From: Escherichia phage vB_EcoM_PHB05
Direction: 5' to 3' (one strand)
Sequence record: NC_052652.1
Length of the DNA stretch: 64,000 nucleotides
Shown piece after piece: positions 23,958 through 26,042 of the stretch (position 1 is its first letter; every line of letters begins with the position of its first letter). Below the pieces are notes generated by a model. That model had not been told where the DNA came from. It saw only the letters and a program-made list of their open reading frames with translations, and did not search any database. Made by a program: the position numbers and the translations under genes.

Positions 23958-26042
23958 GTGGCAAGGAAACCTGTCAAACAATCTTTTGAAAATGTAGATA
24001 TTGAAGTTAAAGCCCAACCTGGCAAACAAACACTAGCTATGGATCTTATGCCTGAAGTAATGATTTATGGTGGTGCGGCAGGTTGTGTTTCAGCAGAAAC
24101 AGAATACTTAACAAGAGACGGTTGGAAACAAATAAGTGAATATGATGGTGAGGATATTTATCAATACAATCCAAGAAATAAACGTCTTGAATTAGTTACA
24201 CCATCTTTTGTAGAATATGATGCTAAAGATAATCTGTATTGTATCACAAACGGGGTAGGTGTCTTCCAAGAATTAAGTATGGAACATCGCTTTGTTTTCT
24301 ACAAGAAGAAAAAATCCAAAAAACATTTTGAAATTCTTGTTGGGGATCTTATTGCACTACAGCAAGCAGGACACCCATTACGAGGATATATTGAAAATCC
24401 TTTTGGTAAACGTGTTCCGTTTAACATTCAAGGTAAACCTAGCACATATCTAAAAATTCATGAGGTAATGACAAGTGATGATAAGAAATATTGCTTTGAA
24501 ACTCCAAGCAGTTATGTCGTGTTTAGACGTGGCGATCACATCTTCGTTACTGGGAATAGCGGCAAAAGCCGTCTGCTACTTCTAAAAGCACTTAAATACG
24601 CATATAAAGATCCACTGTTTGGTGGTATTCTTTTCCGTAAAAATACAACAGCTTTACGTAAATCTGGTGGTTTGTTTACTGAAGCTAAAAAACTTTATCT
24701 ACCATTAAAGCCTCACGTAAGAGAACAGGCTATGGAGATGGAGTTCAGAGCCACAAAAGGTGGCACACTTAAATTTGACCATCTTGAAAATGATAACGTA
24801 ACTGCTGAAACTAACCATCAAGGTACACAGTATTCGATGGTAGGGTTTGACGAACTTACACATTTTACACAATATGAAATGCTGTATCTGTTAGGGCGTA
24901 TGCGTTCTGAATCAGAAACATCTTTTATGCTGTGTACTTGTAACCCTGATGCTGACAGTTGGGTGTTGAAATGGGTACTTCCTTATTTGGATGAAGCTGG
25001 TTATCCACGGGAAGATATGTGTGGCAAACAGCTATACTTTCTTATTGTGCAAGATGAACCAGTATTTGCTGAAACAGCAGAAGAGTTGAAAGAAAAGTAT
25101 CCTGAAAACTGTTTTATGCAAAACCCAAACACAGGTGAAACAGTGGTTATTGAACCACAAACATTTGTGTTCATTGGTGGTACTATCTTTGATAACCCTG
25201 AACTAATAAGACTTAACCCTAAATACTTAGCTTCTTTGAAGGCTCAAACCGCCGTTAAGAGAGCACAGCTTTTAGATGGTTGTTGGTTTGCTCGTGCGCA
25301 AGAAGAGAGTTTCTTTAACAGAGAATGGTTACACGTTATCAAGTTTAAAGATTTACCAAACAATCTTAAATATATGCGAGCGTGGGATAAAGCAGTATCT
25401 GTTCCAACAGAATCTTATCGTTATCCTGACTACACAACATCTGTTAAAATGGCTAAAGACTCTGATGGAAATTATTACATTTTTGGTGATTATGATTATG
25501 ATGCTCACGATGAAGGTAGTAAAATTTTTGGTAGATTCAGAAGACTACCAGGTGATCGAGATAATTTAATTCTAAACCAATGTAAGATTGATGGAGATGA
25601 AGTTACAGTTGTATTGCCAAAAGATCCTTCTGGTGCTGGTTTGATTGAATATACAGAATCGGCTAAAAAACTAATTGCTGAAGGATTTGTTGTTAAACCA
25701 GACGCTATGCCTGGTAACAAGAAAAAACTACAACGCTTTATGCCATTTAGTAGTGCTTGTCAAAATGGTTTTGTTTATATTGTAGAAGAATCTTTCCCTA
25801 ACAAAGAAACTCTTGATCATTTCTATAAAGAGATGGAGTCATTTAATGGAGAAAGATCTACGGCAACATTAAAAGATGATATTCCAGATGCTGCTGCATC
25901 TTGCTTTAATACTTTGTCAAAAGAACAGATGTTTAAAGCAGTAGCAATACCTTCTGCAACAAATGCATTAACAGGGTATGGTAAGATGGGTGGAAGATCA
26001 AGAAATTCTTTATCTTCTCCATATAGTATCAGAGGAAGATAA
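23958..26042 (+). CDS. terminase large subunit with intein-like insertion
   Basis: Walker A GGAAG/SGKS split by 158-aa insert; Walker B MVGFDELTHF; GTG start after AGGAGG. Confidence 0.75.
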   Translation: MARKPVKQSFENVDIEVKAQPGKQTLAMDLMPEVMIYGGAAGCVSAETEYLTRDGWKQISEYDGEDIYQYNPRNKRLELVTPSFVEYDAKDNLYCITNGVGVFQELSMEHRFVFYKKKKSKKHFEILVGDLIALQQAGHPLRGYIENPFGKRVPFNIQGKPSTYLKIHEVMTSDDKKYCFETPSSYVVFRRGDHIFVTGNSGKSRLLLLKALKYAYKDPLFGGILFRKNTTALRKSGGLFTEAKKLYLPLKPHVREQAMEMEFRATKGGTLKFDHLENDNVTAETNHQGTQYSMVGFDELTHFTQYEMLYLLGRMRSESETSFMLCTCNPDADSWVLKWVLPYLDEAGYPREDMCGKQLYFLIVQDEPVFAETAEELKEKYPENCFMQNPNTGETVVIEPQTFVFIGGTIFDNPELIRLNPKYLASLKAQTAVKRAQLLDGCWFARAQEESFFNREWLHVIKFKDLPNNLKYMRAWDKAVSVPTESYRYPDYTTSVKMAKDSDGNYYIFGDYDYDAHDEGSKIFGRFRRLPGDRDNLILNQCKIDGDEVTVVLPKDPSGAGLIEYTESAKKLIAEGFVVKPDAMPGNKKKLQRFMPFSSACQNGFVYIVEESFPNKETLDHFYKEMESFNGERSTATLKDDIPDAAASCFNTLSKEQMFKAVAIPSATNALTGYGKMGGRSRNSLSSPYSIRGR
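24084..24557 (+). mobile_element. putative mini-intein inside the terminase P-loop
   Basis: Insert begins with Cys (CVSAETEYLTRDG), ends ...FVTGN followed by Ser; flanking exteins reconstitute GGAAGSGKS. Confidence 0.45.

Follow-up and report, generated by a model that had tools for sequence, protein, structure and literature searches.

A very probable mini-intein with two conserved cysteines in the Walker A motif of the large terminase subunit of Escherichia phage vB_EcoM_PHB05

How can a lytic phage rely on a packaging ATPase whose P-loop is divided by more than a hundred foreign residues? The question is raised by a stretch of 64,000 nucleotides of Escherichia phage vB_EcoM_PHB05 (NC_052652.1; hereafter the window), a phi92-like myovirus (Justusliebigvirus, Stephanstirmvirinae), in which the gene of the large terminase subunit (TerL) contains 158 additional codons inside its Walker A motif. 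In our opinion this segment is very probably a functional, splicing mini-intein, and this reading is based on the in-frame insertion, its absence from homologues, the occurrence of LAGLIDADG-bearing and LAGLIDADG-free alleles at one bond, the HINT fold, the homology to a proven intein and purifying selection. The 694-aa precursor would be unable to form the P-loop, with the intein lying in the Walker A loop between Gly42 and Ser201; self-excision would join GGAAG to SGKS and would yield a 536-aa active TerL together with a free 158-aa intein, a HINT-fold element from which the homing endonuclease would have been lost. We infer excision together with ligation because viable lytic phages are expected to need an intact Walker A motif and because the insert is under purifying selection.

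The insert and its alleles at one terminase bond

The gene and its parts are the following:

23958..26042, plus strand: TerL precursor gene, GTG start, 694 codons and a stop (694 aa), between the spanin genes and the portal gene
23958..24083, plus strand: N-extein of 42 aa with the first half of Walker A (YGGAAG) at its end, from codon-by-codon reading
24084..24557, plus strand: very probable mini-intein, 158 aa, predicted HINT fold, without homing-endonuclease domain, inserted between G42 and S201
24558..26039, plus strand: C-extein, 494 aa, which opens with SGKS, the second half of Walker A, and comprises the remainder of the ATPase together with the nuclease domain (Terminase_6N and Terminase_6C)

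The unspliced precursor matches Pfam Terminase_6N (E 1e-16), and its gene is 99% identical at the nucleotide level to the large-terminase genes of BME3, muut, phi92 and many others, relatives in which it is annotated as TerL; in the annotation of the near-identical phage EmilieFrey the gene order is i-spanin, o-spanin, TerL, portal. Judged by its sequence, the protein combines the two parts that define a large terminase subunit, a Terminase_6N ATPase with a Walker A motif and an RNase H-like nuclease domain. In the spliced form PF03237 is matched at E 8e-19 over profile positions 1-213, and PF17289 weakly (E 4e-4).

The N-extein ends in ATG ATT TAT followed by GGT GGT GCG GCA GGT (G38-G42, last base 24083), the insert extends from TGT (Cys1, 24084-24086) to AAT (Asn158, 24555-24557), and the C-extein opens with AGC GGC AAA AGC (SGKS, 24558-24569); the 474 nt of the insert (158 codons) are in frame and free of stops. 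When they are deleted in silico, MIYGGAAGSGKSRLLL results, in which GGAAGSGKS fits the canonical Walker A pattern GxxxxGK[ST]; the Terminase_6N match now begins at profile position 1, not 8, and its score rises from 61.7 to 68.6 bits. Q24, G38, G39, A41 and G42 are invariant in a six-sequence alignment, in which intein-free TerLs were included.

The homologue set consisted of 120 database TerLs and was gathered with the full precursor as query, which was needed to reach the allelic inteins; a word-indexed protein search with the insert alone gave just five close fragments. The Walker A loop is unbroken in 68 of the 120 and is split at exactly this G↓S bond (↓ marks a splice junction) in 37, the remaining 15 being fragments or unclear. 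Unbroken homologues read GG[A/S]AG[S/A]GK[S/T]. Additionally, tblastn with the spliced N-terminal half found uninterrupted matches across the junction, for instance in Vibrio phage 355E48.1 (58% identity) and in the Felixounavirus group (~38%), and the uninterrupted TerLs were aligned as YGGSAG-SGKS and YGGAAG-AGKT, with no residues between the halves. Since homologous terminases run unbroken across the junction, the segment would not be part of the mature enzyme.

All 37 inserts start with Cys, end in [T/S]-G-N and are followed by SGK[S/T], and such a Cys...[T/S]GN↓SGK[ST] pattern at one bond is far beyond chance. Their lengths are 146 aa (11 cases), 158/159 aa (17 cases), 246 aa, 301 aa and 323-328 aa, and even related Vibrio phages differ: 355E48.1 has an empty site, PWH3a-P1 an insert of 146 aa. 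The alleles of 301-328 aa carry LAGLIDADG-like motifs (LRLQVAVMADG, DEVxHWDGS) and a weak LAGLIDADG_3 match (E 0.012), whereas neither a Pfam nuclease match nor a LAGLIDADG-like region was found in the 158-aa insert of the window, which can therefore be regarded as the endonuclease-less mini-intein allele of a classic presence/absence series.

An initial annotation, made before any homologue was consulted, had placed a 158-aa insertion at 24084-24557, with its removal restoring the GGAAGSGKS P-loop; the codon reading confirmed the position exactly, and the improved Terminase_6N match agrees with the restored motif. It had also considered the segment too short for a homing endonuclease, hence a mini-intein, which the comparison with the longer alleles bears out, and it had proposed an alignment to intein-free terminases, by which the insert turned out not to be a conserved part of the ATPase.

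Between the window and the Phapecoctavirus ESCO5 the dN/dS ratio is 0.053 for the intein and 0.066 for the extein (dS ~1.7), with amino acid identities of 88% and 87%, respectively; compared with Klebsiella phage 05F01 the identities are 72% and 69%. TerL is presumed essential in lytic phages, and on this measure the intein is constrained as tightly as the extein protein, as would fit an element that must fold and splice for DNA packaging. In 54 phage records the insert does not differ at all (100% identity), and another 77 have it at 80-90% identity; the records come from isolated lytic phages. Its GC content (34.6%) is close to those of the extein (36.8%) and the window (38.1%), so that there is no sign of recent acquisition; the matching identities of intein and extein, the wide conservation and the unremarkable GC content together indicate vertical inheritance with TerL since before the Stephanstirmvirinae diversified.

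Fold, conserved residues and a possible splicing route

The insert is predicted to fold as a HINT domain. The AlphaFold model, computed from the alignment of 38 intein-bearing terminases, is all-beta with a mean pLDDT of 87, and the top 50 Foldseek matches of the model in the PDB are HINT domains only, the best one being 6ZGQ, the class 3 split intein AceL NrdHF (E 8.7e-7). The same entry was found among the PDB sequences by a profile of 13 family members (E 1.1e-10), and hhalign aligned the family profile with the full AceL NrdHF sequence, taken from the supplement of PMC7891396, end to end over 138 columns (probability 97.9, E 5e-13). In this alignment S65-M-E-H68-R69-F70 of the window intein is paired with S65-P-N-H68-R69-M70, KY-C137-FET-P141 with FH-C124-LSV-P128, and V-T156-G157-N158↓S with V-T144-G145-N146↓S, where VTGN↓S is identical. 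The overall identity is ~21-23%, and the two elements differ in several respects: AceL NrdHF (Hoffmann et al. 2020, PMC7891396) has Ala1, occurs in nature as two halves separated by a free-standing GIY-YIG gene, resides in a ribonucleotide reductase gene and consists of 146 aa, whereas the window intein has Cys1, is contiguous (cis-splicing), resides in the TerL P-loop and consists of 158 aa.

Two further resemblances were set aside. WW-domain matches (PRP40, Yorkie), which ranked best among the PDB sequences at E 0.05 for the insert by itself and at 5e-4 for the profile, concern intein residues 3-44 (window 24090-24215), i.e. the N-terminal hairpins with GWK...Y.YN...P, and were taken for chance or convergent similarity, as the fold searches return only HINT; the C. 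difficile toxin cell-wall-binding repeats (DGKKYYF), which were the sole matches of a 39-column C-terminal profile against PDB sequences, are irrelevant.

The residues which would be involved in splicing are located in four blocks:

24084..24122, plus strand: block A, C1-VSAETEYLTRDG; Cys1 at 24084-24086; G13 and W14 invariant
24258..24299, plus strand: block B; S65 at 24276-24278, H68 at 24285-24287, R69 at 24288-24290, F70 in position B:12 (Trp in class 3)
24483..24530, plus strand: block F, KKY-C137-FETPSSYVVFRR; Cys137 at 24492-24494 in position F:4, then P141
24537..24560, plus strand: block G, HIFV-T156-G157-N158↓S+1; Asn at 24555-24557, Ser+1 at 24558-24560

C1, G13, W14, H68, D132, K135, Y136, C137, G157, N158 and S+1 are invariant across 38 aligned TerL inteins, Cys1 and Cys137 are each present in 39 of 39, and the junction residues as well as those of blocks B, F and G do not vary among inteins which share ~30% identity. 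The junction possesses Cys1, the terminal Asn158 and Ser+1 of an intein, and S65-M-E-H68 provides the [T/S]xxH motif of block B; in AceL NrdHF the H68A substitution abolishes splicing (PMC7891396). In the AlphaFold model Cys137 is situated in the strand preceding the terminal hairpin.

The same picture emerges beyond terminases. When 1.84 billion cluster representatives were searched exhaustively with phmmer, 734 proteins were found at E<=1e-3 (117 at E<=1e-10), and in the top 149 of these 162 inteins were delimited, with boundaries set by hidden Markov model (HMM) and simple position rules. Position 1 is Cys in 160 of the 162 inteins, and so is F:4, the equivalent of C137; G:5 is Thr in 129 and Ser in 32, G:6 is Gly in 161, and the terminal residue is Asn in every case. 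Gly precedes the intein in 133 cases, and the +1 residue is Ser (72), Cys (49) or Thr (41). According to a rough count V, K, M, I, F or L occupies B:12, and no Trp was seen there. The median length is 316 aa, and 13 of the 162 are minis.

Several points weigh against the intein reading. As a single sequence the 158-aa insert matches no intein in Pfam (PF14890/PF07591), in the NCBIfam intein N- and C-terminal models (E<=10) or, by phmmer, among PDB sequences, and just 2 of 13 relatives reach PF14890, weakly (E ~1e-3). The penultimate His (G:6), which is common but not obligatory in inteins, is absent and replaced by Gly157, and the His of block F:13 is absent as well. The worry over the penultimate Gly is answered by AceL NrdHF, which is devoid of both the F:13 and the G:6 histidines and in which Arg69 forms a hydrogen bond with the C-scissile carbonyl, partially compensating for the missing His; its G145H mutation destroyed the activity, through a modelled clash with Arg69 (B:11) (PMC7891396). 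The window intein has the same Arg69 at B:11. Furthermore, a mycobacteriophage intein with penultimate Gly splices well, and its Gly-to-His mutant piled up precursor (PMC5050341).

The intein-like interpretation of the initial annotation is therefore supported by the presence/absence pattern, the homology to AceL NrdHF, the HINT fold and the selection. The Cys start, the Asn end and the following Ser, on which it had relied, are verified by the codons and by their invariance in the 38 aligned sequences; SMEH (24276-24287), which it had regarded as a TxxH-like block, corresponds to block B; and the Gly in place of the usual penultimate His, which it had pointed out as a deviation, is indeed there and is the rule of the family. 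The Hint-domain HMM search which it had suggested gave a divided result, empty for the single sequence in Pfam and NCBIfam and positive for the family profile and for hhalign.

Concerning the chemistry, S65 and H68 of block B would strain the Gly42-Cys1 bond, the N-extein acyl group would be taken up as a thioester and would be transferred to Ser+1, the cyclisation of Asn158 would release the intein, with Arg69 (B:11) standing in for the missing penultimate His as it partly does in AceL NrdHF, and an O-to-N acyl shift would restore the peptide bond. We lean slightly towards a route in which the acyl group passes through Cys137 (F:4), which would either attack directly, like its class 3 counterpart, or receive the group from Cys1 in a relay. 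In AceL NrdHF, which has Ala1 and Met at B:12, Cys124 is the branch point: C124A and C124S abolish all activity and S+1A gives N-cleavage (PMC7891396). As that intein splices via Cys124 without Cys1, the scaffold can run on the F:4 Cys alone.

Class 3 inteins are defined by Trp at B:12, Cys at F:4, Thr at G:5 (hence WCT) and no nucleophile at residue 1, although Ser1 or Cys1 has been recorded in a few WCT inteins (PMC2807308); F:4 Cys and G:5 Thr contribute to the Cys-His-Thr triad of the class (PMC7664689). The window intein has Cys137 at F:4 and Thr156 at G:5, in addition to the +1 Ser and the P-loop site, but at B:12 there is Phe70 instead of Trp, and the nucleophile Cys1 is present; AceL NrdHF is still class 3 despite its Met at B:12. 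The F:4 Cys, the G:5 Thr, a Ser or Thr at +1 and the association with phages are shared with the canonical WCT inteins (MP-Be DnaB, Msm DnaBi1, Mch DnaB1), and so is the preference for the ATPase P-loops of phage-related helicases and terminases. Two features speak against the passage through Cys137: Cys1 is retained in 160 of 162 inteins, as would suit an ordinary class 1 start but hardly a dispensable residue, and the Phe at B:12 is not the class 3 Trp.

It is quite conceivable, if somewhat less so, that the intein is an ordinary class 1 element, in which Cys1 alone forms the linear thioester that is passed to Ser+1 and Cys137 fulfils the assisting role usually played by Asp at F:4; this would change the mechanism only and not the identity of the intein. 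The HINT fold, Cys1, [T/S]xxH, the terminal Asn, Ser+1 and a length of ~130-160 aa without endonuclease are common to it and to the class 1 mini-inteins (Npu/Ssp DnaB, gp41-1), but these have Asp at F:4 and His at G:6, where the window intein has Cys and Gly. A class 1 route alone is disfavoured by the closest characterised relative, AceL NrdHF, splicing through the homologous Cys without Cys1, and by the F:4 Cys instead of Asp in 160 of 162 inteins, which together with Thr/Ser at G:5 represents the class 3 triad pair (PMC7664689).

The near-invariance of Cys1 argues that it is used as well as Cys137. In this uncharacterised family the class 1 nucleophile (Cys1) and the class 3 nucleophile (Cys F:4) stand side by side. 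A tentative and rather doubtful extension of this idea is that both are used, with a thioester relay from Cys1 via Cys137 to Ser+1 or with redundant entry; the family would then form a natural bridge between the classes, AceL NrdHF (Ala1) having completed the switch independently of the canonical WCT lineage. Such a bridge, if true, would be relevant to the view that class 3 inteins are a product of convergence and could not have evolved from class 1 (PMC7664689). The definition applied in a large class 3 survey, 'no Cys at the N-end and Cys at C2:4', would exclude the present family, and the FCT triplet is not in the table of that survey. A disulfide between Cys1 and Cys137 could make the maturation of TerL redox-sensitive.

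Just after block B, near the place where the longer alleles hold the endonuclease, there is a lysine-rich patch, YKKKKSKKH (intein residues 73-81, window 24300-24326), encoded by the A-rich run aagaagaaaaaatccaaaaaa and strictly conserved in the 158/159-aa subfamily. It may be the remnant of a DNA-binding linker, and its A-rich tract could be prone to slippage.

Alternatives to protein splicing

The insert might be a permanent insertion domain, or a decayed and non-splicing intein relic, kept in the mature terminase. The empty single-sequence comparison with intein families would suit it, and some GenBank annotators read an 'N-terminal endonuclease domain' of the terminase here. We consider it highly improbable: G42 and S201 are parted inside GxxxxGK[ST], a motif contiguous in 68 homologues, the junction and block B, F and G residues stay invariant at ~30% identity, the purifying selection equals that of the extein, and no nuclease motif but a HINT fold only was found. 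Even less credible is a bacterial-intein-like (BIL) or cleavage-only HINT domain which would cut TerL in two without ligation. The BIL domains 2LWY and 6TMM are indeed among the structural matches, but BILs, which mainly cleave and lie in variable regions, have no nucleophile at +1 and do not interrupt conserved motifs (PMC7664689; PMC4031507), whereas Ser+1 is invariant here, the terminal Asn is present and the site is the Walker A loop, which works only if its halves are rejoined. Removal at the nucleic-acid level, by an intron or translational bypass, so that the insert is never translated, has precedents in the HNH-containing DNA insertion elsewhere in the TerL of relatives and in an intron with an HNH endonuclease that Pectobacterium phage CB7 is reported to carry in its large terminase (PMC7344957), but it can practically be dismissed in view of 474 in-frame nt without stop, a well-predicted HINT fold, purifying selection at the protein level, and the absence of an Rfam match (e.g. 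group I/II intron) in 23000-27000 and of meaningful flanking repeats.

The insertion mentioned above was seen in phage PD114, where 976 bp in the C-extein of TerL (1524-2499 of the PD114 locus, L011; window ~25180, TerL nt 1223-1231) contain an open reading frame of 226 aa with an HNH-like motif and the annotated gene is split in two. The same two-piece TerL match occurs in four 'Campylobacter phage' records, and the TerL of Klebsiella phage FKP3 is also broken by an HNH gene; the TerL of the window is without the PD114-type insertion. With the HNH insertion and the intein taken together, TerL in this clade would therefore host at least two different selfish elements. The four 'Campylobacter phage' records, A150, A145, C3 and A110a (MG065639, MG065645, MG065656 and MG065689; stated host C. 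jejuni), are ~99% identical to phi92-like coliphages across TerL and look mislabelled or derived from contaminating coliphages.

The wider family and its meaning

With the insert as query, tblastn gave two-piece matches with an endonuclease-sized gap in primase/helicase, PhoH, DNA polymerase and RtcB genes of unrelated phages. Family members were located in a primase/helicase, a PhoH-like ATPase and an RtcB ligase (L009:1381-2580, L010:1276-3045 and L008:1285-3396), and three translated loci read:

RtcB, Corynebacterium phage Lederberg: GVDIG↓CVDADTEYLTPTGWK...AYCF...FITGN↓C
PhoH, Acinetobacter phage: GFAG↓CVDADTEFLSESGWK...KYCF...FVTGN↓TSKT
Helicase, Pseudomonas phage KIL1: SASG↓CVDKDTEYLTPQGWK...KYCF...FITGN↓TGKS

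The sites in other genes are mostly G↓[S/T/C]GK P-loop bonds, and the family appears to be very large and mostly phage-borne, with the signature Cys1 ... [K]YCF ... [T/S]GN↓S/T/C. In the KIL1 helicase intein the LAGLIDADG core (LRLQVAVMADGRIVKEGKDNYTQMRF) is very similar to its counterpart in the large TerL inteins, a likeness which suggests recent jumps between host genes. A family HMM found no second copy in the six-frame translation of the window, this one intein family being the one scanned for.

Inteins in phage terminase P-loops are already well documented, and the kind is not new. They are abundant in actinobacteriophages, terminases accounting for ~40% of mycobacteriophage inteins (PMC5050341), and a 2025 survey counted 293 TerL inteins. 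The mycobacteriophage and actinobacteriophage TerL inteins (Kelley et al. 2016, PMC5050341; Gosselin et al. 2025 preprint) resemble the present one in their location, as they are concentrated in the ATPase domain and occur in its Walker A loop too; splicing was efficient in the examples tested, and phage class 1 inteins often lack the penultimate His (same sources). Their P-loop sites TerL1-a/b, likened here by description and not by sequence, coincide with or adjoin the Lys-Thr bond in a Terminase_1 protein, whereas the window site, G↓SGKS, is placed three residues further upstream and in a TerL of Terminase_6 type, from an enterobacterial myovirus. The window element would add to this kind a member in a coliphage TerL, from a little-studied family with two conserved cysteines.

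In the GenBank records checked no intein is annotated, the gene being named 'terminase large subunit', 'hypothetical protein' or 'large terminase with endonuclease'. We found no report of a terminase intein in Stephanstirmvirinae, Justusliebigvirus or Phapecoctavirus in the literature searched, and a literal search of the literature for the intein motif returned nothing relevant. In table S5 of the BASEL collection, a careful comparative survey, the intein count of EmilieFrey is zero (PMC8594841); the insert of this phage and that of the window are 100% identical. In addition, a 2024 paper states that no inteins were reported in coliphages (PMC11162368). The element has remained unannotated in phi92 and in more than 130 related therapeutic or model coliphage genomes, and the standard Pfam/NCBIfam models miss it.

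The active packaging ATPase would be the 536-aa spliced product and not the annotated 694 aa, which affects TerL expression, structural work and engineering. Moreover, the intein would be an E. coli-compatible, cis-splicing member (158 aa) of a dual-cysteine family whose sole studied relative uses the class 3 mechanism, and with its Cys1 and Cys137 it is suited to the question whether class 1 and class 3 chemistry can coexist in one scaffold.

Two minor observations concern the surroundings. The close relatives PaulScherrer and JohannJBalmer have two and one inteins, respectively, and an intron, in other genes (BASEL table S5, PMC8594841). The overlapping open reading frames 23283-23714 and 23620-23949, directly upstream of TerL in the window, correspond to the i-spanin/o-spanin pair of EmilieFrey, and the lysis genes therefore abut the packaging module directly.

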